Origin: Candidatus Deferrimicrobium sp.
Lineage (GTDB): Bacteria > Desulfobacterota > Deferrimicrobia > Deferrimicrobiales > Deferrimicrobiaceae
NCBI RefSeq assembly: GCF_036396855.1
Contig: NZ_DASWKA010000030.1
Span: forward strand, 12,103-76,102
Reading direction: 5' to 3'
Length of the DNA: 64,000 nt
The translations under genes and the position numbers were made by a program. Each line of letters begins with the position of its first letter. Within the stretch, counting starts at the first letter, position 1. The notes beneath the pieces were generated by a model. That model was given only the letters and a program-made list of their open reading frames with translations, had not been told where the DNA came from and searched no databases. This document shows positions 461 to 20,151 of this stretch, piece by piece.

Positions 461-474
461 GGGAATCTCCCGGA

Positions 475-1392: not shown

Positions 1393-1468
1393 CCACTCCC
1401 CGGAAGGTCGGATATAAACATATATATTGGACGCATACTTGGTAGTTCGTCAACAGCGACGCTTCCCG

Positions 1469-2092
1469 TCACCGCCGATTCCCCCGGTTTTGACGGAGCT
1501 GGTATTGCCGGGTGAGGCGCCTCCCCTCCTCGTACCCGGTGGCGGTATCGGGGGAGGCCGGCCGCAAGGCTGCGGAGCCGACCGGGGAATCGGCTCCGGT
1601 CACCGCCGTGCCCCCGTGGCTTCCCAAAGGCAGGATCTCGAGTTTTTCTCTCTCGCTGCCGCGCGTGATCCAGGCCACGTCGCGCTCGACCGAGGCGAGG
1701 AACGCCCCGGGCTCGACCTCCTCCTTTTCACGGAACGCCTCCGGCGCCTTCATCCCGGTCGCCCACAGAATCGCGCGGCGGGAGACCGGGTTGGAGGAGA
1801 CGATCGTCCCCATGAGGACGAAATTCGAGCGCGACGCCAGGGGATCGGTCATCCCGTCCACCGCGGGGAGGCGGGACGCCAGTTTCATCCCGGCCCCGGG
1901 GGCGAAGAGGTTGTTCCATTCCTCCGGCGGCGCGGCGGGTCCGGCGGGTCCGGCGGGGGTCGCGGCCACCTGGGCCGGGGCCTTCGGGGAGTACGCGATC
2001 AGGCCGAGGAAGCTCGTCAGGATGACGCCGAGCGAAACGGCCGCCACGATGATGGAAAACCCCAATACGGCCAGGAAGACCGGCTTCCGCAT
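1469..2092 (-). CDS. GspC-like paralog lacking the PDZ domain
   Basis: ORF 1469..2122. The likely start is MRKPVFLAVLG at 2092, parallel to the MRKPEYFAVLG start of the neighbour. It shares the TM helix and the FVLMGTIVSSNPVSRRAILWATGMK..FREKEEVEPGAFL core but has no PDZ segment. Confidence 0.6.
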   Translation of the reverse strand: MRKPVFLAVLGFSIIVAAVSLGVILTSFLGLIAYSPKAPAQVAATPAGPAGPAAPPEEWNNLFAPGAGMKLASRLPAVDGMTDPLASRSNFVLMGTIVSSNPVSRRAILWATGMKAPEAFREKEEVEPGAFLASVERDVAWITRGSEREKLEILPLGSHGGTAVTGADSPVGSAALRPASPDTATGYEEGRRLTRQYQLRQNRGNRR

Positions 2093-2203
2093 GCATCCCC
2101 CGGGAAACAGAATGTGAGCCATTCTTCATATTGAACGCATTTCCCGGATCCCGTCAACAACCCCGGAACCCGGACGTTCATCACGCGCCGATGATCCGGT
2201 ATA

Positions 2204-3928
2204 ATGGGCACCGCCATGAGTGACCCGACCCTTCGCCCCAAAGGATCCGGAGCACGGGATCCCGTCGACTTCCTCCGGGGGATCGTCCGGCGCGACACCG
2301 AATCCGGCGTCTACGGCGGCCGGGTGGCGACGCGCTTCCCCCCCGAGCCGAACGGCTTCCTGCACATCGGCCACGCCAAGTCGATCTGCATCAACTTCGG
2401 CATCGCCGCGGAGTTCGGCGGCGTCTGCCACATGCGGTTCGACGACACGAACCCGGAAACCGAGGACATGAAATACGTCGAATCGATCCGGCGCGACGTG
2501 CGCTGGCTCGGGTTCGACTGGAAAGAGAATCTCTTCTTCGCGTCGGATTATTACGAACAGCTCTACGAACTGGCGGTCCGCCTGATCCGGGACGGGAAGG
2601 CGTACGTGGACAGCCAGAACGACGAGGGGATCCGGAGGGGCCGCGGCACGATCACGGAGCCGGGCGTCCACAGCCCGTACCGGGACCGCGCGGTGGAGGA
2701 GAACCTCGACCTCTTCGCCCGCATGAAGGCGGGGGAGTTCCCCGACGGGGCGCACGTCCTGCGCGCGAAGATCGATATGGCGGCGCGGAACATGAAGCTG
2801 CGCGACCCGCTGCTCTACCGGATCCGCCACGCCGCGCACTATCGCCGCGGCGACGCCTGGTGCCTCTACCCGATGTACGATTTCGCCCATCCGCTCTCCG
2901 ACGCGATCGAGGGGATCACGCACTCGATCTGCACGCTCGAGTTCGAGAACAACCGGGCGATCTACGACTGGCTCGTCGACAACCTGTTCCCGGAACCTCG
3001 TCCCCGGCAATACGAGTTCGCGCGCCTGAACCTCGACTATACGGTGATGAGCAAGCGGAAGCTTCTCCAGCTGGTGGAGGAGGGACTCGTCTCCGGCTGG
3101 GACGATCCCCGGATGCCGACGATCGCCGGGATGCGCCGCCGCGGCTACGCGCCGGAAGGGATCAGGCTCTTTGCCGCGCGCATCGGCGTGGACAAGTCGA
3201 ACAGCCGCGTCAGCATGGAACTGCTCGAGGACGCGATCCGGGACGATCTGAACGCCCGGTCGCCGCGCGCGATGGCCGTCCTGCGCCCCCTCAAGGCGAC
3301 GATCACGAACTGGCCGGACAACCGGGTGGAAGAACTGGAGATCGCGCTTTGGCCGAAGGATGCCGGGAAGGAGGGGACGCGCACGGTCCCCCTGGCGCGC
3401 GAGATCCTCATCGAGCGCACCGATTTCTCCGTCGATCCGCCGGCCGACTGGCGCCGCCTGCGCCCGGGCGGCGAAGCGCGGCTCATGGGCGGCTACTTCC
3501 TCCGGTGCGACGAGGTTTTTCGCGACCCGGCCACCGGCGAGGTGTCGGAGCTCCTCTGCTCGTACGACCCCGAGTCTCTCGGCGCGCCGGCCAGGGGCGA
3601 GCGGAAGAAATCGACCGCGATCCAATGGGTGTCCGCTGCGCATGCGGTATCGGCCGAGGTCCGCCTGTACGACCGCCTGTTCACCGTCGCCGATCCCGAG
3701 AACGTGGAAGAGGGGAAGACGTTCAAGGAGTTCCTGAACCCGGCCTCGGTGGAGGTGCTGCGGGGATCCCTTGTCGAACCCGCTCTCGCGTCCGCCTCGC
3801 CCGGGGACCGTTTCCAGTTCGTCCGCAACGGCTACTTCATCGCCGACGAGGCCGATTCGAAGCCCGGCGCGCCGGTTTTCAACCGCATCGTCGGCCTGAA
3901 GGACAAGTACCGCCCCAAAGGGTATTGA
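2204..3928 (+). CDS. glnS: Glutamine--tRNA ligase
   Basis: 574-aa ORF with class I motifs FPPEPNGFLHIGHAK and VMSKRKL, and GlnRS-type architecture. An alternative ATG lies at 2216. Confidence 0.95.
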   Translation: MGTAMSDPTLRPKGSGARDPVDFLRGIVRRDTESGVYGGRVATRFPPEPNGFLHIGHAKSICINFGIAAEFGGVCHMRFDDTNPETEDMKYVESIRRDVRWLGFDWKENLFFASDYYEQLYELAVRLIRDGKAYVDSQNDEGIRRGRGTITEPGVHSPYRDRAVEENLDLFARMKAGEFPDGAHVLRAKIDMAARNMKLRDPLLYRIRHAAHYRRGDAWCLYPMYDFAHPLSDAIEGITHSICTLEFENNRAIYDWLVDNLFPEPRPRQYEFARLNLDYTVMSKRKLLQLVEEGLVSGWDDPRMPTIAGMRRRGYAPEGIRLFAARIGVDKSNSRVSMELLEDAIRDDLNARSPRAMAVLRPLKATITNWPDNRVEELEIALWPKDAGKEGTRTVPLAREILIERTDFSVDPPADWRRLRPGGEARLMGGYFLRCDEVFRDPATGEVSELLCSYDPESLGAPARGERKKSTAIQWVSAAHAVSAEVRLYDRLFTVADPENVEEGKTFKEFLNPASVEVLRGSLVEPALASASPGDRFQFVRNGYFIADEADSKPGAPVFNRIVGLKDKYRPKGY

Positions 3929-3949
3929 CGTACATGGACGGAACAATTA

Positions 3950-4045
3950 CGATAGGCCTACTAGCCGGGGTGCTCGTTCCTACAGGGGCGGGCTGAGATC
4001 ACACCCGTTGAACCTGATCCGGATAATGCCGGCGCAGGAAGACAA
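3950..4045 (+). promoter_or_regulatory. TPP (THI-box) riboswitch aptamer
   Basis: ctagccggggtgc...ggctgagatcacacccgttgaacctgatccggataatgccggcgcaggaag matches the conserved THI-box segments (GGGGUGC, CUGAGA, ACCC-UUGAACCUGAUC-GGAUAAUGCC-GCG-AGGAA). It lies directly 5' of thiS. Confidence 0.85.
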
Positions 4046-4051
4046 CGAGAT

Positions 4052-4087
4052 GCGCGCTCGGTGAAAAACCTGGCGCGTTTTTTTATT
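4052..4087 (+). terminator. Intrinsic terminator, the riboswitch expression platform
   Basis: GC stem gcgcgc(4052-4057)/ggcgcg(4072-4077) is followed by a run of seven T (4078-4084), immediately upstream of the thiS RBS. Confidence 0.6.
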
Positions 4088-4103
4088 GTTCGGAGGGGCG
4101 GGC

Positions 4104-4304
4104 GTGAATCTGATCGTCAACGGCGAGGCGTACGAGGCGGAGCGGCTCGAATCCGTGACGGCGCTGCTCGAGGAGATGGGTGTCGGCGGCCGGCCGGTGG
4201 TCGTCGTCCTGAACGATGAAGTGGTCCCCGCTTCCTCGTGGGGCGCGTGCGGGTTGCGGGAGGGCGATCGCGTGGAGTTGTTCCGCCTCGTCGGCGGCGG
4301 ATGA
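4104..4304 (+). CDS. thiS: Sulfur carrier protein ThiS
   Basis: ORF 4086..4304. GTG at 4104 follows GGAGGGG. The small ubiquitin-like protein ends in ...ELFRLVGGG (C-terminal GG) and is followed by thiG. Confidence 0.85.
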
Positions 4305-4323
4305 TCGCCGGGAGGGGGGAGGC

Positions 4324-5157
4324 ATGAATCGGGAACCCGGAGGGGAAGAGATGGAGGGTCAAGACAGGGTACCGGATGAGTGGAGCGTCGGGGGGCACCG
4401 GTTCTCCTCGCGGCTCCTGATGGGGACCGGCAAGTTCCAGGATGCGGAAACCATGGTGGGGGCCGTCCTGGCCTCGGGGGCGCAGATCGTCACGGTGGCG
4501 CTGCGCCGCGTCGGCCGCAATCCACGGGAAGACGACATGCTCGGTCCGCTGGGAGAGCTGAAGGGGATCACCCTGATGCCGAACACCTCCGGGGCGCGGA
4601 ACGCGTCGGAGGCGATTCGAGCGGCGCGCCTCGGGAGGGAAATCTGCGGGAGCCCCTTCGTCAAGGTCGAGATCCACCCCAACCCGCACCATCTCATGCC
4701 CGACCCGATCGAGACGTTCGAGGCCGCAAGGGTCCTCGCCGCGGAAGGATTCGTGGTGATGCCGTACATGCCGGCCGACCCGGTCCTCGCCAAGCGGCTG
4801 GAGGACGTCGGGTGCGCGTCGCTGATGCCGCTCGGTTCCGCGATCGGAAGCGGGCGCGGGCTGGCCACGGCCGAGATGCTGCGGCTCATCCTTCGCGAGG
4901 CACGGATCCCCGTGATCGTCGACGCGGGCCTCCGTTCCCCTTCGGAAGCCGCCGCCGCCCTCGAGATGGGGTGCGACGCGGTCCTCGTGAACAGCGCCGT
5001 GGCGGCGTCCGGCGACCCGATCGCCATGGCATCGGCGTTCGCGCGGGCGGTCGGGGCGGGCCGGGACGCGCACCGGGCCGGCCTCATGCCGCAGGGCGGC
5101 GGCACCGCGCTGGCGACAAGCCCCCTGACGACGTTCCTTTCCGGGGAGGGTTCATGA
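4324..5157 (+). CDS. thiG: Thiazole synthase ThiG
   Basis: ORF 4216..5157 with ATG at 4324. Motifs [19 protein letters not shown] and VIVDAGL..PSEAA are typical of ThiG. Confidence 0.9.
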
Positions 5158-6290
5158 CACCGGAAGCGCGGATGCCCGCGTGGCTGGATCCATCGCCGTG
5201 GCTCGACGGAAAGGAGGCGACGCCCACGGACGTGGAACAGGCGCTCGGGTGCGATGCGCCCGGCGTGCGGGAACTCGCCGCGCTCCTTTCCCCGGCGGCG
5301 CATCCCTTCATGGAAACCATGGCGCAGCGCGCCCGCGCCCTGACGCAACGCCACTTCGGGCGAACCATCTCCATGTACGCGCCGCTCTACCTGGCCAACT
5401 ACTGCACGAACGGCTGCGCGTACTGCGGCTTCGCCTCCGATCGGGTCCAGCCCAGGCACCGCCTCGAGCCTCCGGAGGCGGAGGAGGAACTGGCGATGCT
5501 GAAGGAGATGGGGTTCGAGGAGGTTCTTCTGCTCACCGGGGAGCGCACTTCCCACGCCGGCTTCGATTACCTTCTCGAATGCGTGTCGCTGGCGGCGCGG
5601 CGGTTCCACGCCGTCGGGGTCGAGGCCTTTCCCATGACTACCCGGGAGTACGCCCTCCTGGCCGAAGCGGGCTGTTCCGGGGTGACGTTGTACCAGGAAA
5701 CGTACGATCCGCGCCAGTACGACCGACTCCACCGCTGGGGCCCGAAGAAGGATTACCTGGACCGGCTGGATGCGCCCGCCCGGGCGATGGAAGCGGGGAT
5801 CCGGACCGTTGGCCTGGGGGTGCTCCTCGGACTGTCGGATCCGGCCTTCGACGCCCTCTGCCTGCTGCGCCACGCGGAGCATCTGCGGCGGAATCATTGG
5901 AAGTCGGGGATCACGCTCTCGTTCCCCCGCCTGCGGCCCCAGTCGGGGAATTTCTCGGCGATGTTCCCCGTCGACGAGGCGTGGCTGGCGCGTCTGGTGT
6001 TCGCGGTCCGGATCGTTCTCCCGGATGTCCCGCTCCTCCTTTCGACGCGGGAACGGCCGGAATTCCGGGACGGCATGGCCGGGCTCGGGATTTCGAAGAT
6101 GAGCGCGGGAAGCCGCACGAGCGTCGGCGGCTACGGCGAGGCGGAGCCGGCGACCGAAGGCCAGTTCCAGGTCAGCGACAAGCGCAGCGTGCCGGAATTC
6201 TGCTCCATGCTGCGGAACCGGGGTCTGGAGCCGGTATTCAAGAACTGGGACAGCGTGTTCCGGGACGCGGATGGAGGCGGGCATGGATGA
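5154..6290 (+). CDS. thiH: 2-iminoacetate synthase ThiH (radical SAM)
   Basis: ATG at 5154 overlaps the thiG stop (ATGA). It carries the radical-SAM CxxxCxxC motif ([10 protein letters not shown]) and ThiH-like length and context. The upstream part of ORF 4380..6290 is an out-of-frame overlap with thiG. Confidence 0.9.
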
Positions 6291-6924
6291 CGCGTTCGGG
6301 CTTTATCTCGTCATGACCGACCCGGTGGTCGGATACGAGGCGTGCGCGGAAGCGGCGGTCCGGTGCGGCGTTCGGTATCTCCAGCTCCGGATGAAGGGGG
6401 CGCCCCCGGATGCCGTTCTCCAAACCGCCCTGCGCGTGCGCGAGATCACCCTCGGCAGCGACACCCTGTTCATCGTCAACGACGACGTGACGATCGCGCG
6501 CGATGCGGACGCCGACGGGGTCCACCTCGGTCAGCACGACCTGCCGATCGCCGAGGCGCGGCGCCTGTGGACCGCGCCGGGCAAGCGTTTCGGCCTTTCG
6601 ACGCACAATGAGCGGGAGGCGCTCATCGCGTCGCGCCTGTCGCCCGATTACATCGGGGTCGGACCGGTGTTCGCCACCCCGACCAAGGCGATCCCCGACC
6701 CGGTCCTCGGCACCGACCGGATGGGATCGATCATCCGATCGGTCCCGGTGCCGGCCGTCGCCCTTGGCGGGATCGACCTCGGGAATCTCGCGGAGGTCCT
6801 CCGCAGCGGCGCCCGGAACTTCTGCGTCGTGCGCGCGGTCACCCGCCGCCCGGATCCGGAGACCGCGATCCGGGAGTTGCAGGAGATCTGGCGGCAGGAA
6901 ACGGGAGCCGGCCTGGAGATTTGA
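6283..6924 (+). CDS. thiE: Thiamine-phosphate synthase ThiE
   Basis: ORF 6271..6924. ATG at 6283 has a GGAGG 5 nt upstream. Motifs LYLVMTD, YLQLRMK, DGVHLGQ and GVGPVFATPTK are present. Confidence 0.9.
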   Translation: MDDAFGLYLVMTDPVVGYEACAEAAVRCGVRYLQLRMKGAPPDAVLQTALRVREITLGSDTLFIVNDDVTIARDADADGVHLGQHDLPIAEARRLWTAPGKRFGLSTHNEREALIASRLSPDYIGVGPVFATPTKAIPDPVLGTDRMGSIIRSVPVPAVALGGIDLGNLAEVLRSGARNFCVVRAVTRRPDPETAIRELQEIWRQETGAGLEI

Positions 6925-6949
6925 AATCTTGTCGCGGGTTTGTTTTTCG

Positions 6950-6995
6950 TTGAACAAAGTACGCAAGTTTCTCCCCTCTCTCACCGATATTGAAT
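6950..6995 (+). promoter_or_regulatory. Conserved upstream element L1 (TTGAAC-AAAGTACGCAAGTT-N14-CCGATATTGAAT)
   Basis: A 46-bp element 33 bp upstream of the histidine kinase start. It recurs with the same spacing at 10543-10588. Confidence 0.5.
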
Positions 6996-7027
6996 CCGAA
7001 GGCAACCCATTCAGCGAGAGGATCCCG

Positions 7028-8938
7028 ATGGACCGGACAGCCGACAAACGCGCCTTCCGCAGCCCCGGCGCCTCCAAGGAGGAGCGAAAACGGCTTCGTG
7101 CCGTTTTCGACCTTTCCGGCGACGCCATCTTCCTCATCGACGGAGGGGGGCGTTTCCTCGATGTCAACCAGGTCGCCTGCGAACGCTACGGCTATGCCCG
7201 GGACGAGATGCTGCGGCGGCACGCGGGCGATTTAAACGTCCCGGAGCATGCCCCGCACTACGAGGGTCGGATGGCAACGCTCCGACGCGACGGCGCCGTC
7301 ATCTTCGAGACGGTGCACCAGGCGAAGGACGGCCGGCGTATCCCCACGGAAATCAGCTCGAGGCTCATCCGCGGGGGAGGCCCGGACTTCATCATCAGCG
7401 TCTGCCGGGACATTACGGAGAGGGTGAAGGCGGAGGAGGAGCAGCAGATCTTCAAGTCCCTCGTTGAGAACAGCACCGATCTCATCGGGATCGCCTCGCT
7501 GGACGGGAAGGTCTTCTACCTGAACAAGGCCGGCCTGAAGCTCGTCGGTCTGGACAGCCTGGGAGAAGAACGGAGAAGGAGGATTCAGGACTTCGCCCTG
7601 GAAAAGCACTTTAAACCGTTGCAGGAGATGCTTGCGTCTCTCTCGAAAGAGGGGACGTGGAAGGGCGAGGCAAGGATTCGTGACTTCATTACGGGGACGC
7701 CGATTCCGGTCGAGATCCACGGGTTCGCCATCAGGGACGACAAGACCGGGCAGCCGATCGCCCTCGCGGCCATCGTTCGGGACATCTCGGAGCGGAAAAA
7801 ACTGGAAGAGGAGATGGCGAGGGGCGACAAGCTGAATTCGATCGGCATCCTTGCCGGGGGGATCGCACACGATTTCAACAACCTCCTGACGGCGATCTTC
7901 GGGAACATCACGCTGGCGAAGATGTACGCGAACCGCCGGAGCGAGGTGTACAAGCGGCTGGAGGAATCCGAGAAGGCGGCGGAACGGGCGAGAGACCTGA
8001 CCCACCAGCTGTTGACGTTTTCGAAGGGCGGAGCGCCCGTCAAGAGGACGATCTCTCTTCAGGAACTGGCGAAGGAGTCGGCGAACTTCGTCCTGCGGGG
8101 ATCCAACGTCAAGTGTGAGTTCTCGTTTCCCCCCGACCTTTGGCACGTGGAGGCGGACGAAGGACAGATCAGCCAGGTGCTCAACAACATCATCATCAAC
8201 GCCACCCATGCGATGCGCGAGGGGGGGACCGTGCAGATGCACTGCGGGAATGTGGTCGTCGAACAGAGCGACCCGCCGCTGGCGAAGGGCAAATACATTT
8301 TGATTTCCATCATGGATCACGGGACCGGGATCACGAAGAAGCACCTGTCGAAGATCTTCGATCCCTATTTCACGACGAAGAAGAAGGGCAGCGGTCTTGG
8401 GCTGTCGACCAGCTATTCCATCGTCAGGAGCCATGGCGGGCATATAACGGCCGAATCCTTCCCGGGGATCGGCACGACCTTCAAGATTTACCTGCCGGCC
8501 TCCGGGGAGGGAATGCTGCTCCCGTGCGCCGAAGACGCACTGTTTGTCACGGGGAAGGGGAGAATCCTGGTGATGGACGACGAGGAGGCGGTCCGGGATG
8601 TCGCCCGGGGCATGCTGGAGGCCCTCGGCTACTCGGTGACGCTTGCGAAAGACGGGACGGAAGCGATTGATTTCTATAAAGCGGCGATGGTGGACGGAGA
8701 GCCGTTCGATTCGGTGCTCATGGATCTTACGATACCGGGCGGCATGGGCGGCATGGAAGCGGTGAAGAGGATCCTTGAATTCGACTCGAAGGTGAAAGCG
8801 ATCGTTTGCAGCGGATATTCCAACGACACGATCATGGCGAACTACAACAGCTTCGGTTTCCGCGCCGTCGTTCCCAAACCTTACAGCCTGAAGCAATTAG
8901 GCGGAGCCATCAGCGAAGTCCTCTCAGCGCCGCAGTAA
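7028..8938 (+). CDS. Hybrid sensor histidine kinase (PAS-PAS-HisKA-HATPase-REC)
   Basis: ATG at 7028 with a GAGAGGA RBS, inside ORF 6503..8938. It has two PAS-like segments, an H-box GGIAHDFNNLL, N/G boxes (NNIIINATHAM, DHGTGI, GSGLGLS) and a C-terminal receiver (ILVMDDEE...LMDLTIPGGMGG). Confidence 0.9.
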   Translation: MDRTADKRAFRSPGASKEERKRLRAVFDLSGDAIFLIDGGGRFLDVNQVACERYGYARDEMLRRHAGDLNVPEHAPHYEGRMATLRRDGAVIFETVHQAKDGRRIPTEISSRLIRGGGPDFIISVCRDITERVKAEEEQQIFKSLVENSTDLIGIASLDGKVFYLNKAGLKLVGLDSLGEERRRRIQDFALEKHFKPLQEMLASLSKEGTWKGEARIRDFITGTPIPVEIHGFAIRDDKTGQPIALAAIVRDISERKKLEEEMARGDKLNSIGILAGGIAHDFNNLLTAIFGNITLAKMYANRRSEVYKRLEESEKAAERARDLTHQLLTFSKGGAPVKRTISLQELAKESANFVLRGSNVKCEFSFPPDLWHVEADEGQISQVLNNIIINATHAMREGGTVQMHCGNVVVEQSDPPLAKGKYILISIMDHGTGITKKHLSKIFDPYFTTKKKGSGLGLSTSYSIVRSHGGHITAESFPGIGTTFKIYLPASGEGMLLPCAEDALFVTGKGRILVMDDEEAVRDVARGMLEALGYSVTLAKDGTEAIDFYKAAMVDGEPFDSVLMDLTIPGGMGGMEAVKRILEFDSKVKAIVCSGYSNDTIMANYNSFGFRAVVPKPYSLKQLGGAISEVLSAPQ

Positions 8939-8988
8939 CCGCCACGAAGGAAAACGCCCCCTTCCGGGGGCGCGGACATTCGTGGCGG
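8939..8988. terminator. Compound GC hairpin between convergent genes
   Basis: Outer inverted repeat ccgccacgaa(8939-8948)/ttcgtggcgg(8979-8988) encloses cgccccc-ttcc-gggggcg (8955-8972). No clear U-tail. Confidence 0.45.
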
Positions 8989-9062
8989 TCCTGATGCACG
9001 TCCTCCTCCGGGACGGGTGCGGCCGATATGCTCCGCCAGGGTGCGCTTGACAGGCGCCCCAT

Positions 9063-9473
9063 TCACTTCGGCACGGTCGGGTACCCGGCCTGGACCCAGG
9101 CGTCCCATCCCCCCTTCAGCACGGAGACCTTCGTAAACCCTTTCTCGATCAGCCGGAGCGCCACACCGGCGCTCGTTTGCTCGTTGCTTCAGGCGCAATA
9201 CAGGATCATGGGCTTGTTCTTGGAGTACCGCTTCTCCCATCCCCCCACGTCGTTCGGCTCTTCCCGCACCGCCCCGGCGATCTTGCGTTCGCTCCCTGTC
9301 CAATCCCTCCCGCTCCGGACATCCACAATGACGATTTCCGGGTTGCCCAAACGCTGCTTGAGTTCCTCCTTCGTGATCCGGGGAGGCTCCGCCGCTGAAA
9401 CTTCCCAGGAAACCGGTAAGGATGCCAACAGGAGGAACATCGCTCCGTAAGCGGCAATCCTTCTCTTTTTCAT
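9063..9473 (-). CDS. Periplasmic single-domain rhodanese, probable selenoprotein (in-frame UGA at 9191-9189)
   Basis: ATG at 9473 with a GGGAGGAG RBS, and signal peptide MKKRRIAAYGAMFLLLASLPVSWEVSAA. The rhodanese fold reads ...IVIVDVRSGRDW...KPMILYCA-[TGA]-SNEQTSAGVALRLIEKGFTKVSVLKGGWDAWVQAGYPTVPK*. The frame stays open for 41 more codons after the TGA and completes the domain. Confidence 0.7.
9156..9174 (-). promoter_or_regulatory. SECIS-like hairpin
   Basis: On the mRNA strand the hairpin is GAGCGCC-GGUGU-GGCGCUC (7-bp stem, G-rich apical loop). It starts 14 nt after the UGA. Confidence 0.6.
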
Positions 9474-9625
9474 ATCTCCTCCCTCGTGACTCCCGCGCGT
9501 CCCCAAAAATACTATTTTCGCAGAAAACGGATCACGGTTTTCCTGGATACGGAGAATATATGACTCCGATCCCCGCGCTTGGAATCATGGAGGACGTGCG
9601 AAACGTTATAGGTGTTTCCTGTATC

Positions 9626-9640
9626 CTATATACTATATAG
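9626..9640. promoter_or_regulatory. Perfect 7-1-7 palindrome CTATATA-C-TATATAG in a divergent promoter region
   Basis: It lies in the AT-rich 210-bp spacer between the rhodanese (-) and carbonic anhydrase (+) genes. Candidate operator. Confidence 0.4.
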
Positions 9641-9715
9641 ACTATATTCTAGCCGCGTCAGGCCATGGCGGGACCGGGGCCATGAATCTCACTGCCGGCT
9701 GCGTAAGGAGCGGCT

Positions 9716-10375
9716 ATGACGAAATCGACCACGGATCGGTATCTGGAAAACAACAAGCAGTATGCGGGCGGGCAGACGATACACAAGCCCTCTTACCCTG
9801 GAAAGCTGCCGATTCACCCGGCCAGGCGCGTGTCGGTCGTGGCCTGTATGGATGCGCGGCTTGACGTCGAGGACCTGCTCGGCCTGCAGACCGGCGACGC
9901 GCACATCATCCGCAACGCCGGTGGCGTGGTGAGCGACGATACGATTCGCTGCCTCATCGTCTCGCATCATCTGCTGGACACAAATGAGATCCTCCTGATT
10001 CACCATACCCGCTGCGGCATGCTCGCCTTCACGGATGATTTGCTCAAAGCCGGCCTGGAGGGAGACCCGGCGGCCGGGAAACTGCTTGCTCAGGCGACGG
10101 GGCGCGCTTTCACGAGCTGCAAGAAATCCGCGGCGATGCCGTCCGCGTTCCACGCCTTCCGCGGCCAGATCGAACCGCTCGATGCTCCGCGCGACGCGAA
10201 GCAAACGGAACGCCTCGAGTGGGACGTGCGGCGGGGGATGTCTTCGATCCTGAACCATCCGTGGATCCCGACCGGCGGGCCGGACGCGGTCACTGTGCGC
10301 GGATTCATCTACGACGTGGATACCGGGAAGCTGGAGGAAGTGGGCTATCCGGGGCCCATGGGATCGATCCGATAA
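9716..10375 (+). CDS. Beta-class carbonic anhydrase family protein
   Basis: 219-aa ORF with an AAGGAG RBS. Zn-ligand motifs are VVACMDARL and HHTRCGM. The C-terminal [14 protein letters not shown] is typical of the small beta-CA clade. Confidence 0.85.
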
Positions 10376-10389
10376 CGGCGGTCCCAGTG

Positions 10390-10524
10390 CCCCCGAAGGG
10401 GGTACCCCAGGGAGCGCGTTATATCCGGGAGTGGGGCGGGGGAACCCCGCTCTATGAACGGCAGGTAATATGCGTGGCGGTCCCAGCGGGGTTCGAACCC
10501 GCGTTTTCGCCTGGGAGGGCGCCG
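10390..10524. repeat. Repeat copy A: 85-bp R element plus a 3' fragment of tRNA-Glu
   Basis: 10475-10511 is identical to the 3' 37 nt of the tRNA-Glu gene at 21755-21791, with degenerate similarity to about 10524. 10390-10474 is homologous to 15465-15552. Confidence 0.8.
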
Positions 10525-10542
10525 ACGTACGATTACGGGAAT

Positions 10543-10588
10543 TTGAATAAAGTACGCAAGTTATAGCACCATCCTACCGATATTGAAT
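10543..10588 (+). promoter_or_regulatory. Conserved upstream element L2 (copy of L1)
   Basis: TTGAAT-AAAGTACGCAAGTT-N14-CCGATATTGAAT, with the same 46-bp geometry as 6950-6995. Confidence 0.5.
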
Positions 10589-10619
10589 GGGAAGCTTATC
10601 CCATGACGGGAGGAACCCG

Positions 10620-10766
10620 ATGGCCCGAAAGGCAGACCGGCACGTCCCCGGCGGACCCCGCGCTTCCATGGAGGAGCTGGAACGGCCCCGCTCCGTCGTT
10701 CCGAAACCTTGCAGCCTGAAGCAATCGGGCGGGACCATCAGCGCTGTTCTCTCGGCGCCGCTTTGA
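10620..10766 (+). pseudogene. Collapsed relic of a paralog of the 7028..8938 histidine kinase (48 codons, still in frame)
   Basis: The relic reads MARKADRHVPGGPRASMEELERPRSV|VPKPCSLKQSGGTISAVLSAPL*. The kinase at 7028..8938 has N-terminus MDRTADKRAFRSPGASKEERKRLRAV and C-terminus VVPKPYSLKQLGGAISEVLSAPQ*. DNA similarity is visible on both sides, and the relic is preceded by the L2 leader. Confidence 0.6.
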
Positions 10767-10787
10767 TGCCCCGGGTGAATTGATCGG

Positions 10788-12785
10788 ATGGCCCACCAGC
10801 ACGTCGTCAGCGACTACATGGAGCACGGCGCCTGCTTTTCCTGGGAACCGGGACTTGTAGCGCTCCACGTCATCTCCGACATCGTAACCGGCATCGCGTA
10901 CTTTTCCATCCCCGCCGCACTGTTCTACTTCGCTTACAAGCGGCGGGACCTTCCCTTCCACGGCGTAATTCTCCTCTTCGGGATTTTCATCCTGGCGTGC
11001 GGGACCTCCCATTTCCTGGCGGCCTATACGGTATATGTCGCCGACTACTGGATCGAAGGGGGGGTGAAGGCGTTTACGGCGTTGATCTCGGCGGTGGCCG
11101 CCTTTTACATGATCCCCCTGATCCCCGATGCCATCGCGATGCCCAGTTTGACGAAGTCATTGAAACAGAACAAGGAGCTGAACGCGCAACTGGAAAGAAA
11201 ATTGGACGAACTGAACGGGAAAACCCGGGAACTCATGGAAACCAACCGTGAACTGAACCTCAGCGAAAGCCGTTTCCGAGTGCTGGTCGAGCATGCCCCG
11301 GACGCCATCGTCGTGTACGACGCAACGCAGAACAGGTTCGTGGACGCCAATGCCAATGCGGATCGTCTTTTCGGATGCAGTCGCGAGGAGCTCCTGGCAT
11401 CCGGACCGCCGCGGTTTTACGCATCGGCGCAGCCGGATGGGTTTCCCCCCGCTGAGAGCATGGAGAAGATGATCGAACGGGCCCTGGCCGGAGAAACATT
11501 GCTGTTCGAGCGAGCGGTGCACAACGCGGAAGGGAAGGATCTTCTTTGCGAGGTGCGGCTGGCACGATTGCCTTTTACGGATCGCAACCTGATGCGCGGC
11601 AGCTTCATCGACATCACCGAACGGAAGAAACTGGAGGAACGGTTGCGCCAGTCGCAGAAGATGGAGTCGGTCGGAAGGCTTGCGGGGGGCATCGCCCACG
11701 ACTTCAATAACCTCCTGACGGTGATCACCGGGTACAGCGAGCTCATGCTGAGCCAGCTTGAAGAGAGGTCGCCGCTGGTCAAGGAAGTGGAGGAAATCAA
11801 GCGGGCCGGCGAGCGGGCATCGTCGCTTACGCAGCAACTTCTTGCGTTCAGCCGACGCCAGGTGCTGCAGCCGAGGGTGATCGACCTGAACGAGGTGGTC
11901 TCCCGCGTGGAGAAAATGCTCCGCCGGTTGATCGGGGAGGACGTGGAGCTCCGGACGGTCCCGGGTGCGGGGCTGTGGAGCGTAAAGGCCGACCCGGGTC
12001 AGATCGAGCAGGTCCTGGTCAACCTCGTGGTGAACGCAAGGGATGCGATGCCCGGCGGCGGGGTGCTCACCATCGAGACGGGCAACGTGTTTCTCGACGA
12101 GGAATATTCCCTCGGGCATCTCCCCGCGCAGTCCGGCCATTACGTCATGCTCGCCGTCAGCGACACGGGAGTGGGGATGGACGAGAGGACGAAGTCGCAG
12201 GTCTTCGAGCCCTTCTTTACGACGAAGGAATCGGGGAAGGGGACGGGGCTCGGGCTCTCCACCGTATACGGAATCGTCAAGCAGAGCGGGGGCTACATCT
12301 GGGTGTACAGCGAGCCCGGCAAGGGATCGACGTTCAAGGTCTACATTCCGCGCACGGAGGAGCGGGAGGATGGTCCACGCAAGGCGGTCCCGCCTGTCGA
12401 GGATCTTCGCGGGGAGAAAACCGTTCTCATTGTCGAAGACGAGGAATCGATTCTGAAATTGTCCTGCGCCGTTCTCGGTGGATACGGGTACGCGGTTCTT
12501 GCGGCGCGCGGCGGGGAGGATGGCCTTCGGATCGCCGGGAAGCACGAGGGGGAGATCAGCCTGCTCCTGACCGATGTGGTCATGCCCGGGATGGGGGGAA
12601 GGGAGTTGTACGAGCGGATTCTGCAGCAGCGACCGAAGATCAAGGTCCTTTACATGTCCGGCTATACGGACAAAGCGATCGTTCGCCGGGGTGTGCTGGA
12701 TCCGGGGACGTCTTTCCTGCAGAAGCCTTTCTCGCCGATTTCCCTGGCCCGGAAAGTGAAGGAGGTCCTTGAACCCCGGGCGTAA
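10788..12785 (+). CDS. Hybrid histidine kinase with N-terminal ethylene-binding-domain-like membrane module (EBD-PAS-HisKA-HATPase-REC)
   Basis: 665-aa ORF. Residues 27-120 align without gaps to Arabidopsis ETR1 helices 1-3 (ISD, IAYFSIP, FG.FI..CG..H, IP). After that come a coiled coil, a PAS domain, the H-box GGIAHDFNNLL, an ATPase domain and a receiver. Confidence 0.9.
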   Translation: MAHQHVVSDYMEHGACFSWEPGLVALHVISDIVTGIAYFSIPAALFYFAYKRRDLPFHGVILLFGIFILACGTSHFLAAYTVYVADYWIEGGVKAFTALISAVAAFYMIPLIPDAIAMPSLTKSLKQNKELNAQLERKLDELNGKTRELMETNRELNLSESRFRVLVEHAPDAIVVYDATQNRFVDANANADRLFGCSREELLASGPPRFYASAQPDGFPPAESMEKMIERALAGETLLFERAVHNAEGKDLLCEVRLARLPFTDRNLMRGSFIDITERKKLEERLRQSQKMESVGRLAGGIAHDFNNLLTVITGYSELMLSQLEERSPLVKEVEEIKRAGERASSLTQQLLAFSRRQVLQPRVIDLNEVVSRVEKMLRRLIGEDVELRTVPGAGLWSVKADPGQIEQVLVNLVVNARDAMPGGGVLTIETGNVFLDEEYSLGHLPAQSGHYVMLAVSDTGVGMDERTKSQVFEPFFTTKESGKGTGLGLSTVYGIVKQSGGYIWVYSEPGKGSTFKVYIPRTEEREDGPRKAVPPVEDLRGEKTVLIVEDEESILKLSCAVLGGYGYAVLAARGGEDGLRIAGKHEGEISLLLTDVVMPGMGGRELYERILQQRPKIKVLYMSGYTDKAIVRRGVLDPGTSFLQKPFSPISLARKVKEVLEPRA

Positions 12786-13032
12786 GAACGTCACCGGATC
12801 CCGGCAGCCCGTCGGCCGCGGGAAGTGGTAATTTCTGTTGTTATCCCGTGATTGCGAATACAATGAAGCACTGGTGACAGGTATTGTTGGGTGAGAGGAG
12901 AAGGATCTGACTCTGCCCGCGGCAAATCGTACCTTCCGTCCCCTCCCCGACGCATACAGCAAGCTCGCATCCCTCTTTGGAGCGGCCACCGCAGCGCTCG
13001 GGATCCTTGGTTTATCGGGCTGGATCCTCGGG

Positions 13033-15396
13033 ATGCCCCTGCTCGCGGGCATCCGATCCGCTTATATCCCGATGGCTCCCATCACCTCGATCGCCCTGGC
13101 TTGCCTCGGGGGGCTGCTCCTCGTTATCTCGGTGGGCCCCTCGCAAGGTTTGGTGGGCATGCTCGCAGTCGTGATTTCCGCGCTCATTTCGGCATACGGG
13201 CTGATCGAGCTCGTGGAAGCCCTGGGAATCCCCTTACTCTCCCTGGAAGAACGGCTGTTTCCCCATCCTCCGATGGTGGGTGCGATCCCCACCGGCCGCA
13301 TGTCACCGACAACGGCGGGTCTCCTGCTCCTCGCGGGAGCGGTTGTCCCGTTGCACTCTCTCCGCGAGCGGGGAGGGGAGCGCCGGAAGCTTCTCGGAGA
13401 CCTGGCCGGGTGTCTGGGGATTCTCGTGGCGATGGGCGGGATGGTGGTCGTCCTGAGCTATCTGCACGGGACCCCTCTTCTGTATGGCACCCTGACGATT
13501 CCGATGGCGGCTACGACCGCGCTCGCGTTCCTGTTGCTGGGAACGGGGCAGCTCCTCGCGATGGGACCGGACGGGTTCCCGTCGAGGCTGTTCTCGGGGC
13601 ATTCGGTCCGGGCCAGGCTTCTCCGGGCGTTCGTCTCGACCACGGTCGGTGTCGTGGTGGCGATCGACCTGTTGCACGTCTATGCCCGTGGAGTTTTCTT
13701 CGAAGACAACGCAATCCTGTCCGGTGTTTCCGCCACGGCCGTCGCCGTGATAACGGGTGCGCTGATCGCAAGAGTGGCCTTGAAGGTCGGCGACGACATG
13801 GACCGTTCCGAAGAAATCCGCAGGGAGGCGGAGGACAAACTTCGCGAGAGCGAGGATCGGTATCGGGACCTTGTGGAGCACAGCCAGGACCTCATCTGTA
13901 CGCACGATCTGGAGGGTCGCATCCTCTCCGCGAATCCGTGGGCTGCAACGATCCTGGACTACGCCCCGGAGGAGTTGTTGCGAATGAATTTCCGCGAACT
14001 TCTCGTGCCGGAAGTTCGTCATGAGTTCGAAAGATACCTGGAAAAGATCAGGATGCATGGCACCGCGCGGGGCCTGATGCGGGTTCAGACGCGCAATGGC
14101 GACCGGCGCCTCTGGGAATACAAGAACACCTTGCGTACGGAAGGATTGGCGGAACCGATCGTCCGCGGGATGGCGCATGACGTCACCGAGAGCAAGCGGG
14201 CGGAGGCGGAAAAGCGGAACCTGGAAGAGCAGGTCCGGCGGACGCAGAAGCTGGAGAGCCTGGGCGTGCTGGCCGGCGGGATCGCGCACGACTTCAACAA
14301 CATCCTGATGGCCGTGCTGGGGCACGCCGAGCTGGCCCTCGCCGAAATATCCCCGATGTCCCCCGCCCGCCGGAACATCACCGAGATCGCGACCGCGGCG
14401 CGCCGTGCCTCCGAACTGTGTCGGCAGATGCTGGCGTACGCCGGCAAGACGTCCATCGCGTTGGAGCGGGTGGTGCTGCGGGATCTGGTCGAGGAGATGG
14501 CGCACCTGCTCAAGACCGCGATCTCGAAGAAGGCGATCCTTAACCTGAACCTGGAGCGGGGCCTTCCGCCGATCGAGGCGGATCCGAGCCAGATCCGGCA
14601 GATCGTAATGAACCTGATCATCAACGCCTCGGAAGCGATCGGGGACCGGAGCGGGGTGGTCACCGTATCGGTGGGCGCGACGCGTTGCGACGAGGAGTAC
14701 CTGAGCAGGACGGAACTTCGGGAGACGCTGGCGCCCGGGCTGTACCTCCACCTGGAGGTGGCGGATACCGGCTGCGGGATAGGCGAGGAGACGCGATTGC
14801 GAATCTTCGAGCCGTTCTTCTCCACCAAGTTCACGGGGCGGGGACTGGGACTGGCCGCCGTCCTGGGGATCGTCCGGGCGCACAAGGGGGCGCTGAAGGT
14901 GTACAGCGAACCCGGGAAGGGTACGACGTTCAAGATCCTCTTCCCGGCGACGGAAGGACCGGTGGAGGGAGCACGGACCATCGAGCCCGCCCCGCTGGCC
15001 GACTGGCGGGGGAAGGGGACGATCCTGCTGGTGGACGACGAGGAGAGCCTGGTCGCCCTGGGGGCGCGGATGTTGGAGCACCTGGGCTTCACCGTACTGC
15101 TGGCGTCGGACGGCCTGCAGGCGGTGGAGCTGTACCGGGAACGGGGGAAGGAGATCGACATGGTGCTGATGGACCTGACGATGCCGCACATGGACGGCGC
15201 GGAAGCATTCGGGGAGCTGCGCCGGCTGAACCCCGCCGTCCTGGTGGTCCTCGCCAGCGGGTACAGCCACGAAGACGTGGCGTCCCGCTTCGCGGGGAAG
15301 GGTCTCAACGGGGTGTTGCAGAAGCCGTATTCCCTTCTCAAGCTCCGGGAATCGCTCGCCGGATTGTTGCCGAAACGACAGGAGGGGGATGCGTGA
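13033..15396 (+). CDS. Hybrid histidine kinase with a multi-TM N-terminal sensor (TM-PAS-HisKA-HATPase-REC)
   Basis: 787-aa ORF with several hydrophobic helices in the first ~250 aa. It has a PAS domain, the H-box GGIAHDFNNIL, an ATPase domain and a receiver (ILLVDDEES...LMDLTMPHMDG). The frame is open upstream to 12895 (see findings). Confidence 0.9.
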   Translation: MPLLAGIRSAYIPMAPITSIALACLGGLLLVISVGPSQGLVGMLAVVISALISAYGLIELVEALGIPLLSLEERLFPHPPMVGAIPTGRMSPTTAGLLLLAGAVVPLHSLRERGGERRKLLGDLAGCLGILVAMGGMVVVLSYLHGTPLLYGTLTIPMAATTALAFLLLGTGQLLAMGPDGFPSRLFSGHSVRARLLRAFVSTTVGVVVAIDLLHVYARGVFFEDNAILSGVSATAVAVITGALIARVALKVGDDMDRSEEIRREAEDKLRESEDRYRDLVEHSQDLICTHDLEGRILSANPWAATILDYAPEELLRMNFRELLVPEVRHEFERYLEKIRMHGTARGLMRVQTRNGDRRLWEYKNTLRTEGLAEPIVRGMAHDVTESKRAEAEKRNLEEQVRRTQKLESLGVLAGGIAHDFNNILMAVLGHAELALAEISPMSPARRNITEIATAARRASELCRQMLAYAGKTSIALERVVLRDLVEEMAHLLKTAISKKAILNLNLERGLPPIEADPSQIRQIVMNLIINASEAIGDRSGVVTVSVGATRCDEEYLSRTELRETLAPGLYLHLEVADTGCGIGEETRLRIFEPFFSTKFTGRGLGLAAVLGIVRAHKGALKVYSEPGKGTTFKILFPATEGPVEGARTIEPAPLADWRGKGTILLVDDEESLVALGARMLEHLGFTVLLASDGLQAVELYRERGKEIDMVLMDLTMPHMDGAEAFGELRRLNPAVLVVLASGYSHEDVASRFAGKGLNGVLQKPYSLLKLRESLAGLLPKRQEGDA

Positions 15397-15464
15397 CGTC
15401 TCTCATGCAGGGATCCCACCGGGAAGCCGGTCCAAGAGGGCGTTGACCCTCTCCCTTTTCCTTC

Positions 15465-15600
15465 CCCCCGAAGGGGGTACCCCTGGGAGCGCGATATATC
15501 CGGGAGTGGGGCGGGGGGGAACCCCGCTATATAAACGGCAGGCGGTTATTCGTGGCGGTCCCAGCGGGGTTCGAACCCGCGTTTTCGCCGTGAGAGGGCG
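15465..15600. repeat. Repeat copy B: 88-bp R element plus the 3' 48 nt of tRNA-Glu (attL-like)
   Basis: 15553-15600 is identical to 21755-21802 (tRNA-Glu from its 3' end into the anticodon loop). 15465-15552 is homologous to 10390-10474. Confidence 0.85.
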
Positions 15601-15688
15601 TTAAATAGCCCTTTCAGCATCATCCCGCATAACGTCCCATCGAAGTAGTACCCTACAGAATGTACTGAATTATAACCGTTAATAACGC

Positions 15689-16570
15689 TTGACGGTAACA
15701 CCGAACTGGGCGATCCGCACGGAATTCTCCCTCCTCCACGGCCGGGCGTTCCGAAGTCTTAAACGGATCACGACCGTGAAGGCCCTCTTTTACTTCTACG
15801 AAAAGCGCGTCGTGAAGGTGGACAAGCGGAAACGTGGCGATAAGCGATTCCAGGTCCAGCACGACGCGGAGATCAAGTTTTCCTACAAGGAAGCAGAGCA
15901 GCGGGGACTGACGCGAAAGCGGTTCGCGCAGGCGATCCGGGATCTTCATGCGGCCGGATTCATCGACATCCTCTATCGCGGCAGCGGGGCGCTGAAAGAT
16001 AGTTCCACCTATCGGTTGAGTGAACGGTGGAGGCGGTTCGATACTCCGGACTTCAAGGCCCAGGACATTCCCCTGCGTCTCCGGGAAGAACCGACGAAGA
16101 ATCTGGAACACGACGAAAAAGGAAGGTGGACCCGGGAAGAGGAAAAACCTCAAGTGGTCGAAATGCCCCTTGCTCAAGGGTCAAAACGTCCACTTGAGAT
16201 AACCGTACAAGGGTCAAACCGTCCACTTGAAAGGGGCGATTTCGACCAATCTTCAAGGGTCATAACGTCCACTGAACTAAGTACTACCAGGGGTAGCACT
16301 CGGATTCGGACTGTGAAGAAGGTTAAAAGAAAGACTCGGACCCGCGGTCACGGTTCAAAAGCTATCGCGGCCCCATTGAAAACGAAAATTCGACCCGCTG
16401 CAATTCCTACATGGCCGGATCAAAGCAAGGTACTCGACCTATGCGACAAGCTCCTCCTCGACTCCCTGGAGCGGTTCGGGGATGACGGCCGACCTCACCC
16501 CGAGATGGAGACGGCGCGGAACCTTATCAAGATCATCAACCGGGCGGTGGGAAGCGAGGCGGTGAACTGA
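15689..16570 (+). CDS. Phage/plasmid-type DNA-binding, replication-initiator-like protein
   Basis: 293-aa ORF (TTG start). The N-terminal pattern TPNWAIR...FRSL...AKALFYF...SYKEAEQRGLTRKRFAQAIRDLHAAGFI is typical of winged-helix proteins of integrative elements. The gene contains three iterons. The functional call is inference. Confidence 0.5.
   Translation: MTVTPNWAIRTEFSLLHGRAFRSLKRITTVKALFYFYEKRVVKVDKRKRGDKRFQVQHDAEIKFSYKEAEQRGLTRKRFAQAIRDLHAAGFIDILYRGSGALKDSSTYRLSERWRRFDTPDFKAQDIPLRLREEPTKNLEHDEKGRWTREEEKPQVVEMPLAQGSKRPLEITVQGSNRPLERGDFDQSSRVITSTELSTTRGSTRIRTVKKVKRKTRTRGHGSKAIAAPLKTKIRPAAIPTWPDQSKVLDLCDKLLLDSLERFGDDGRPHPEMETARNLIKIINRAVGSEAVN
16175..16275 (+). repeat. Three direct 22-23-bp iterons (CAAGGGTCAAAACGTCCACTTGA)
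   Basis: Copies at 16175-16197, 16208-16230 and 16254-16275 lie inside the rep-like ORF and encode the repeated QGSKRPLE/QGSNRPLE. Confidence 0.75.
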
Positions 16571-16788
16571 TGAGCACAAAGGAAACCAACACCATGATCA
16601 CCACGGTGGACACGATCACGATCACCGATCCTGACCCGTGCCGGGCTACCCGGTGCGATATGCAGGACAGTCCCACGTCGGCGTGTCGTAAGAGGGGCTG
16701 CGGCTTCGAGTGGAGCAAAACAGCCCGGCTCGACCGCAAGGCGAGGGAAGAGAAGGACAGGAAGGTGAGGGAGAACGTATGCCGATGA
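16570..16788 (+). CDS. Small Cys-rich hypothetical protein
   Basis: 72-aa ORF whose ATG overlaps the upstream stop by 1 nt. It has several Cys (CRATRCD...CRKRGCG). No recognisable family. Confidence 0.4.
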   Translation: MSTKETNTMITTVDTITITDPDPCRATRCDMQDSPTSACRKRGCGFEWSKTARLDRKAREEKDRKVRENVCR

Positions 16789-17126
16789 AGCCGAGGAAGC
16801 CGTGCAAGGGTCCACTCTGTCCGGGTCTGACATCAACGAAGTATTGCGACCGGCACGCCCACCTCGAACAGCAGGACAAGGCGAGATGGGATGCACGGCG
16901 CGGGAGCGCAAAGGAACGCGGGTACGGAGGATCCTGGTCAGCGGCCCGGCTGATGCACCTTCGGAATAGCCCGCTCTGCTACGACTGCGGCAGGCCCGCC
17001 ACGCTGGTCCACCATATCGTACCTATCAGCGAAGGCGGGCCGCGGCTCGACATGGACGGGCTGATGAGCTTATGCGTCGGATGCCACGGCAAGCGGCACG
17101 GCAACGATGCGAGGGCGAAGGGATGA
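16779..17126 (+). CDS. HNH endonuclease (phage packaging-associated type)
   Basis: ATG at 16779 follows GGTGAGGGAG. Motifs are CYDCGRPATLVHHIVPISEGG...LMSLCVGCHGKRH (HNH/zinc finger). It lies just upstream of the small terminase gene. Confidence 0.8.
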   Translation: MPMKPRKPCKGPLCPGLTSTKYCDRHAHLEQQDKARWDARRGSAKERGYGGSWSAARLMHLRNSPLCYDCGRPATLVHHIVPISEGGPRLDMDGLMSLCVGCHGKRHGNDARAKG

Positions 17127-17268
17127 ACCGTAACTCCTTGCTATGGAAGGAGATACCGGGGCGGCCTTCGATCATACCCAATGATGCCCCACGACCGACC
17201 GGTGAGGTGGAAACGCGTGAGACCCGCCGCGAACGAGAATTGGCAATTTCAAAAAGGAGATTTTGGCG

Positions 17269-17616
17269 ATGACAGCGACCTCTCGTAAAGCTCCCCGGGC
17301 TCCCGGTCACCTCTCCAAGCCCGCCCGGAAATGGTGGTCGGGCGTCATGGAGTGCTACGAGATCGAGGAGCACATGATCCAGACGGTGACAGCGGCGGCG
17401 GAGGCCTGGGACCGGAAGGAGATGGCCCGGGAGATCCTCGGCAAGGAAGGATTGACCATCGACTGCCGGGACGGGAAGAAAACGCATCCCGCCGTCGGGA
17501 TCGAGCGGGACAGCAGGCTCGCCTACCTCCGGGCCGTCCGCGAGCTGTGTTTATCCGCCGAAGATCCGGAGGATTCCCGCTCGCCGGGACTTCGCTACCC
17601 CGGGAGGAGGTATTAA
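17269..17616 (+). CDS. Phage terminase small subunit, P27-like
   Basis: ORF 17263..17616 with ATG at 17269 after AAGGAG. The sequence pattern (PGHLSKPARKWW...EEHMIQTVTAAAEAWDR...GLTI...GKKTHPAV...RDSRLAYLRAVRELCL) resembles the P27 small-terminase family. Confidence 0.65.
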   Translation: MTATSRKAPRAPGHLSKPARKWWSGVMECYEIEEHMIQTVTAAAEAWDRKEMAREILGKEGLTIDCRDGKKTHPAVGIERDSRLAYLRAVRELCLSAEDPEDSRSPGLRYPGRRY

Positions 17617-17618
17617 AA

Positions 17619-17834: not shown

Positions 17835-17836
17835 CG

Positions 17837-18645: not shown

Positions 18646-18864
18646 TTTCCTCCCTTCGCTTCTCATGCGTCGGGAAGATGAACCTGTTTCACCTGGCGCG
18701 GATCGCCGACGAGAGTGCGGCCCTCCGCTTTCATCCCATCAACACGCGCTCGCATGGCGACCACGGCGAGAGAACGAAGGCGTCACGGCGCGCAAACCCA
18801 TCAACACGGTGGGCAAATTCAGATAGCTTTGTGAACCGACAATTAAATAACGAAAGGATTCGTC

Positions 18865-20133: not shown

Positions 20134-20151
20134 TGATCCGAACTTCCACCC

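Follow-up and report, generated by a model that had tools for sequence, protein, structure and literature searches.

PspE and GlpE of E. coli, the former a periplasmic protein, are thiosulfate sulfurtransferases made of a single rhodanese domain; the active-site Cys of both lies at the end of the central strand, and neither contains selenocysteine (Sec). In TsoB, a fusion of 572 positions that contains two Sec residues, Sec is part of the active-site loop of rhodanese domains. Another relative, the rhodanese-like domain of Alr3790 from Anabaena, has been solved several times (PDB 3k9r, 2kl3, 3hix, 3ilm), and its loop (Y-G-A-G-D-E-Q-T-S) has neither Cys nor Sec. A single-domain rhodanese that uses Cys and has no C-x-U motif is Sud of Wolinella succinogenes (PDB 1qxn, deposited as 'sulfide dehydrogenase'), which we take to be a periplasmic polysulfide-sulfur transferase. 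The closest described group, though, is a family of rhodanese selenoproteins with the motif CxU, which appears as rhodanese form 3 in reviews, where it is credited to Zhang & Gladyshev 2005 (the bSECISearch paper). A 2022 review names the same family 'COG0607 form 2 (CxU)', and a study of the Olavius symbionts in 2007 reported eight rhodanese-related sulfurtransferase selenoproteins, one of which had the form UxU. The family is also covered by a curated NCBI model, the equivalog NF041203 ('rhodanese_LYCAU'), named 'rhodanese-related (seleno)protein'. Our literature search returned no paper reporting biochemical or experimental work on the LYCAU rhodanese family, and the literature on Deferrimicrobium/MBNT15 that we searched made no mention of selenocysteine. 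In this paper, we have analysed a gene of this kind in a stretch of 64 kb of DNA (hereafter the window) from a Candidatus Deferrimicrobiota-like bacterium, together with 119 loci fetched from genomes and metagenomes.

The gene is located on the minus strand of the window. Its start codon ATG (9473-9471) is preceded by a purine-rich, Shine-Dalgarno-like stretch, GAGGGAGGAG (9476..9485, minus strand; read directly from the sequence), and the translation opens with MKKRRIAAYGAMFLLLASLPVSWEVSAAEPPRITKEELKQ and runs to ...KPMILYCA, where it meets an in-frame TGA (9191-9189). Beyond this codon the same frame stays open for 41 further codons (SNEQTSAGVALRLIEKGFTKVSVLKGGWDAWVQAGYPTVPK) up to a second stop, TGA 9065-9063. 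The coordinates, the TGA after ...KPMILYCA and the 41 open codons given in the initial annotation were all exact on re-reading. The full-length coding sequence (9063..9473, minus strand), as defined by the sequence and by NF041203, comprises 136 residues, with Sec at position 95, plus the stop codon. When the UGA was written as X, the read-through protein scored 155 bits against NF041203 (cutoff 115, E 7e-46) over profile positions 6-126 of 126, the top score among the 11 proteins scanned, and the LYCAU motif after which the model is named is exact in it (...MILYCA-TGA at 9197-9189). It resembles PspE and GlpE in having a single rhodanese domain, yet it scored 29.5 bits against the GlpE model, whose cutoff is 102, and is thus not a protein of the GlpE/PspE type; the score against the TsoB model was 18.6 bits against a cutoff of 805. 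Alr3790 was the best-scoring solved structure after a C-terminal match to the solved rhodanese 6mxv, and Sud gave a weak match (E 3e-4).

By its sequence, the window gene is a Sec-containing rhodanese of an already known family, described in 2005 and represented by a curated NCBI model, and it is a typical, top-scoring member. The LYCAU motif, the domain, the position of the UGA and the placement of the SECIS element are those of NF041203, with no structural difference; what sets the window copy apart from the other members is its Candidatus Deferrimicrobiota-like host and its species-specific neighbourhood. The host was assigned to this lineage through its GlnS, with a similarity of ~90% to MAGs named Candidatus Deferrimicrobiota or Deferrimicrobium (formerly MBNT15). 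The novelty that had first been claimed for this gene was accordingly overstated, for the family is already in the literature and has a curated HMM at NCBI, and current understanding of it is unchanged by the window gene. Family members occur in Desulfobacterota-like bacteria, gutless-worm symbionts, Acidobacteriota (Blastocatellia, Pyrinomonas) and the Deferrimicrobiota-like lineage of the window; the best match in the genome collection, from the Olavius Delta4 symbiont, is 57% identical. We hold it to be very probable that the locus encodes one 136-residue NF041203 protein with a Sec-decoded UGA and a SECIS element, an active-site loop with C93 and Sec95, and putative export.

A rival account of the locus would be that the TGA is a true stop, which would leave either a rhodanese pseudogene, truncated or in decay, or a gene for a fragment of 94 residues, with the frame downstream open by chance. 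Gene callers do end the gene there in every database entry, and the window is without visible Sec machinery. Independent samples in ENA, JGI and Logan yielded nine contigs on which the identical 94-aa N-terminal product was called, and hence the TGA at 9191-9189 is no sequencing error. Furthermore, the proteins of 45 clusters at 56-100% identity were called at 94-95 aa, or longer only by an N-terminal extension, and end at the same column, which is the signature of a conserved UGA. The initial annotation had counted homologues with the same truncation as evidence against its own reading; a common end column in 45 clusters is instead what a conserved Sec-UGA is expected to produce. When the codon at the Sec column was tallied in the 119 loci, we found TGA (9189..9191 in the window, minus strand) in 55, from several phyla, 53 of them C-x-TGA and two TGA-x-TGA. 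Cys stands at this column in two loci, L018 (TGT, 7484) and L077 (TGC, 1682), both of the form C-x-Cys. Asp occupies the column in 51 loci, consisting of 49 Asp-x-Asp paralogues, which contain neither Cys nor Sec, and two C-x-D homologues that keep Cys93, while the ordinary rhodaneses among the fetched loci have Ser or Asn. The resulting C-x-U motif of the window gene, defined by its sequence and by column conservation, comprises TGC (Cys93), GCC (Ala94) and TGA (Sec95) at 9189..9197 (minus strand).

The segment after the UGA points in the same direction. Its frame, length and second stop are kept in all 11 close relatives, and its mean identity to 41 distant homologues is 58%, versus 41% for the segment before the UGA, so that conservation is higher in the 41 downstream codons than ahead of the UGA. 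The rhodanese domain (Pfam PF00581, E 1.4e-15; residues 34-128, 9090..9374, minus strand) extends over both sides of the UGA, the downstream codons completing the domain. Judged by this conservation, the segment after the UGA is translated and under selection. Given the TGA at one column in 55 loci of several phyla, the conserved and domain-completing segment downstream, the existence of Cys homologues and a conserved RNA hairpin (see below), we regard a true stop at this position as extremely improbable.

Three observations on the fetched loci may be recorded here. The two loci with two in-frame TGA codons (LY-TGA-S-TGA; L005 6569-6577 and L065 1137-1145) are U-x-U variants that match the 'UxU' form of the Olavius symbionts. 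In the loci of the Olavius Delta4-symbiont type (L001, L052-L055) there are two tandem C-x-U genes, the additional gene lying ~340-420 nt upstream of the matched one. The MAG of L002 contains a second copy (L017, 2361-2686), which is frameshifted upstream of the TGA, and is either a pseudogene or the product of an assembly indel error.

A predicted bacterial SECIS hairpin, GAGCGCC-GGUGU-GGCGCUC, in which a 7-bp stem (GAGCGCC/GGCGCUC) carries the loop GGUGU, is located at 9156..9174 (minus strand), and was delineated by folding, alignment and the bSECIS constraints. It begins 14 nt past the UGA, and its loop begins 21 nt past the UGA. The bSECIS model of Zhang & Gladyshev, as quoted in PMC13188914, requires 3-9 nt in the apical loop and 4-16 bp in the upper stem, a G within the first two loop positions, 16-37 nt between the UGA and the loop, and an MFE of -7.5 kcal/mol or lower. 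With a loop of 5 nt, a stem of 7 bp, a spacing of 21 nt and a folding energy of -12.8 kcal/mol, the window hairpin lies within these constraints, in agreement with the sequence, spacing and fit to the model that the initial annotation had put forward. The hairpin alone has a z-score of -3.7, one of 200 shuffled sequences folding as well, and the 71-nt stretch around it shows no unusual stability (z = -0.1). Neither the whole window nor 9000-9300 gave a match to a SECIS family when scanned with Rfam; to our knowledge, no Rfam family exists for generic bacterial SECIS elements.

Evidence that the RNA structure itself has been selected comes from an ungapped alignment of 46 distinct hairpin sequences (A1), in which the core stem is formed by columns 23-27 with 33-37 (five pairs). 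The core stem is paired in all 46 sequences, and C-G to U-A compensatory double changes are seen at two pairs. In the true register 87% of the cells are paired, versus 24-49% when the register was slid by way of control (three controls in each direction). All five core pairs are present in each of the 45 distinct TGA homologues, whereas the Asp-x-Asp paralogues have one to four and the C-x-D homologues none. As the stem is almost invariant, covariation amounts to these two double changes together with wobble changes. The stem overlaps the codons of T100-S101-A102 and A105, residues that are at least 90% conserved, and one might hence suppose that the hairpin persists merely because the peptide T-S-A-x-V-A is conserved, with no selection on the RNA structure. 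We consider this very unlikely, since in paralogues with similar peptides (e.g. SARVAA, SSRVAA) the codons differ and the pairing is for the most part absent, and since the pairing has been preserved through the two compensatory changes. Among the 45 TGA sequences, 43 have GCG as the Ala codon at columns 34-36, compared with a mixed usage in the paralogues, which indicates that synonymous sites are constrained. Likewise, the amino acid specified by the loop codon varies (R, S, G or W), but the middle G of this codon is invariant, and Ser at this position is always encoded by AGU. Lastly, the two Cys forms differ in this respect: L077, which is only a few residues away from the Sec forms L016 and L076, retains the full hairpin, whereas the more divergent L018 has lost it. 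The state of L077 suggests a recent change from Sec to Cys. In its pattern of sequence conservation, the hairpin conforms to an RNA structure under selection.

With the score of 155 bits against NF041203, the conserved UGA and the conserved hairpin, the proposal that this is a rhodanese selenoprotein split by annotation has been upheld. Because gene callers cut at the Sec-UGA, every database copy, including those of the close relatives, is without its C-terminal 42 residues; the correct gene call at this locus would be the protein of 136 residues, one more selenoprotein split by annotation.

If decoding follows the mechanism that is standard in bacteria, selenocysteine would be inserted at the UGA (9191-9189), and the hairpin at 9174-9156, within the coding sequence, would bring SelB with its Sec-tRNA(Sec) to the ribosome that has paused at this codon. 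Genes for this machinery were sought near the locus. A tblastn search with SelA, SelB and SelD of E. coli gave no match in the 64-kb window, and with ARAGORN no tRNA-Sec was detected there or across 37 related loci. An additional left flank of ~10 kb is likewise devoid of selA, selB, selD and tRNA-Sec, and contains just a type II secretion operon. In Pyrinomonas methylaliphatogenes K22, which is in culture and carries the Sec form, a selA gene, the product of which shares 44% identity with E. coli SelA, is located ~6 kb away from the rhodanese gene. Weak 'SelD' matches beside the Blastocatellia copies are ThiL-like by eye, with motifs of the AIR-synthase family, and were not counted as selenophosphate synthetase. 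We infer Sec decoding in the organism of the window from the conservation of the gene itself.

Translation through the UGA might in principle insert something other than Sec, either by near-cognate reading as Trp or Cys or under a reassigned genetic code, and it is true that no paper found by us shows Se incorporation for the LYCAU family. TGA is, however, the most frequent ordinary stop among the high-GC3 ORFs of the window, and the ORF for GlnS, for instance, terminates at TGA with a length equal to that of its GlnS homologues. We also scanned the whole window for in-frame TGA codons with coding-like GC3 on both sides, and found two sites, 9191-9189 and 36549-36551. The latter (window 36081-37004, plus strand) was rejected as a second selenoprotein, as it is the stop of ribH (lumazine synthase), with nusB starting in the same frame. 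TGA being the commonest ordinary stop, and a single in-frame candidate being left in 64 kb, we take a reassigned code to be excluded. In addition, the Sec column contains Cys in homologues, the hairpin combines bSECIS geometry with an invariant loop G, and in one of the carriers a gene for SelA is situated close to the rhodanese gene. Selenocysteine remains our reading of the codon, and insertion of another residue seems to us only a very slight chance.

The initial annotation had placed Sec at the position of the canonical catalytic Cys of rhodaneses, aligning U-SNEQT-S with the loop C-NAGRQ-S. The profile alignments and a structural model assign that position to C93 instead. The HMMER alignment to 6mxv sets the canonical Cys on C93. 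When a family profile of 52 sequences was compared by hhalign with E. coli GlpE and PspE, Cys65 of GlpE and Cys67 of PspE also fell on C93, and U95 was located in a two-residue insertion, or at loop position 3. For the structure we used the AlphaFold model of P0049, an Asp-x-Asp paralogue that is 42% identical to the window protein, has the same length and spacing, and stands in for it here; its pLDDT is ~90 in the loop region, and Foldseek confirmed the rhodanese fold and matched the model to Alr3790. In this model the central strand ends at the equivalent of Y92 and the helix starts at that of Q99, leaving a six-residue loop that corresponds to C93-A-U-S-N-E98, with the equivalent of C93 the first residue after the strand. 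Finally, out-group rhodaneses with the same spacing (YCSSEQCQTS) retain Cys where the window protein has C93, and have Ser in place of U95.

Since C93 is placed in this way by the profile alignments and the paralogue model, Sec95 would not occupy the position of the canonical catalytic Cys; the canonical rhodanese Cys is predicted to be C93, and Sec95 a second reactive residue two positions further on in the same loop (C-x-U). The opposite assignment, with Sec95 itself at the canonical position and C93 as an extra residue ending the preceding strand, derives some support from an ungapped alignment anchored on the helix (SAGVALRLIEKGF with GlpE SKGAAQYLLQQGY, by eye), in which U95 stands six residues before S101 just as C65 stands six before S71 of GlpE. 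It disagrees with the 6mxv and hhalign placements, with the strand end at Y92 and the C93-E98 loop of the model, and with the Cys of the out-group rhodaneses, and we judge it unlikely. With C93 as the canonical Cys, the distance from the catalytic Cys to the conserved Ser of the next helix is two residues longer in the window protein than in GlpE or PspE, and its loop Sec has no counterpart in those enzymes. The window protein shares with Alr3790 the E-Q-T-S that follows the loop, the loop of Alr3790 being one residue shorter.

In the single rhodanese domain, C93 opens the loop after the central strand and Sec95 lies two residues on. Most probably, the two residues would work as a pair, either cycling through a selenenylsulfide or with Sec as the attacking residue, which would take up sulfane sulfur or selenium as a nucleophile, and Cys93 as the resolving one. 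In either case, the protein would be an extracytoplasmic sulfur/selenium-transfer or thiol-redox protein.

An extracytoplasmic location is suggested by the N-terminus, MKKRRIAAYGAMFLLLASLPVSWEVSAA (9390..9473, minus strand), which is signal-peptide-like according to its sequence and to comparison with homologues, with cleavage likely after VSA/SAA. By eye, its n-region is basic and is followed by a hydrophobic core and then by a VSA/SAA site (MKKRR-IAAYGAMFLLLASLPV-SWEVSAA), and it would take the protein out of the cytoplasm as a Sec-type signal peptide; PspE likewise has an N-terminal signal peptide. By a simple hydrophobic-run rule, used in place of a trained predictor, a signal-like segment is present in 48 of 50 distinct Sec-form homologues versus two of 40 Asp-x-Asp forms. 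Some Sec forms have a lipobox, e.g. VFGC in Olavius symbionts. The twin arginine of the window protein is not conserved in close relatives, where KGR, KTR and SKR are found, which makes a Sec-type signal likelier than a Tat-type one. Thus, of what was first said about export, the signal-like N-terminus stood and is common to the Sec forms under this simple rule, but the remark that export is unusual for selenoproteins has to be qualified, because exported selenoproteins are not unprecedented. As c-type cytochromes are matured outside the cytoplasm, ExtKL of Geobacter, a multihaem cytochrome c selenoprotein that is membrane-localised, is a likely precedent. Export is not mentioned in a 2026 review of selenoproteomes.

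A more specific idea would be that the Sec form is specifically extracytoplasmic, being either exported unfolded by the Sec translocon or lipid-anchored, and runs a C93-x-U95 selenenylsulfide, sulfane-sulfur or selenium relay, while the Asp-x-Asp paralogues are cytoplasmic and catalytically dead. We put this forward tentatively, as possible rather than probable; if true, it would define a function for a widespread selenoprotein family. The question that the family raises is the role of a C-x-U rhodanese outside the cytoplasm, rather than whether its members are selenoproteins. Sud may be seen as a functional analogue, being a sulfur carrier outside the cytoplasm, and no polysulfide reductase or respiratory partner genes were found near the window gene in the annotated region (about window 1-19,500 plus the left flank).

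The genomic context gives no functional assignment, as a conserved operon partner was sought across the loci and none was found. The gene looks monocistronic from its sequence signals. A σ70-like promoter candidate, CTGACG-18-TATAGT (9632..9661, minus strand; a consensus match only, 9 of 12), is located in the divergent intergenic region, and an intrinsic-terminator-like hairpin followed by a T-run, GCGCCCCCGGAAGGGGGCGT (8944..8973, minus strand; from the sequence), lies ~90 nt past the second stop, that is, after the second stop and not after the UGA. The divergent intergenic region, otherwise 65% GC, also contains an AT-rich stretch with repeated TATAG units, ctagaatatagtctatatagtatataggata (window ~9600-9660), which may be a regulator-binding or promoter region. 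The divergent neighbour is a gene of the beta-class carbonic anhydrase family (Pfam Pro_CA, 219 aa, window 9716-10375, plus strand), and the selenoprotein gene is flanked by two hybrid PAS histidine kinases. The pairing with the carbonic anhydrase gene occurs in the same species only, relatives at 72-84% identity having different neighbours, and the sharing of 'histidine kinase' clusters is probably due to generic domains that they have in common.

At the Blastocatellia loci L006, L008, L010, L011, L013, L016, L068, L070 and L075-L077, a ThiL-like gene of the AIR-synthase family lies 0.15-3 kb downstream, its product being 23-30% identical to E. coli SelD, and cupin, IscU-like and cysteine-desulfurase-like genes, identified by eye from their motifs, are found within 3 kb. 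Such sulfur-trafficking neighbours are curious beside an apparently exported protein.

Several other features of the window were noted. A TPP riboswitch (3956-4057, plus strand; Rfam RF00059, 63.5 bits against a gathering score of 54.3) is directly followed by a thiS-thiG-thiH-thiE operon (~4065-6924). Window 1-2125 is part of a type II secretion operon, complete with gspC, D, E, F, G, H, I, J, K and further genes, which continues beyond the left end on the 92-kb contig (L128 10001-20918). Phage-like genes at ~17200-21910, including a Terminase_4-like gene (~17269-17616) and Phage_capsid (18865-20133), adjoin tRNA-Glu(CTC) at 21755-21830 and tRNA-Gln(CTG) at 21834-21907, and are probably a prophage remnant.
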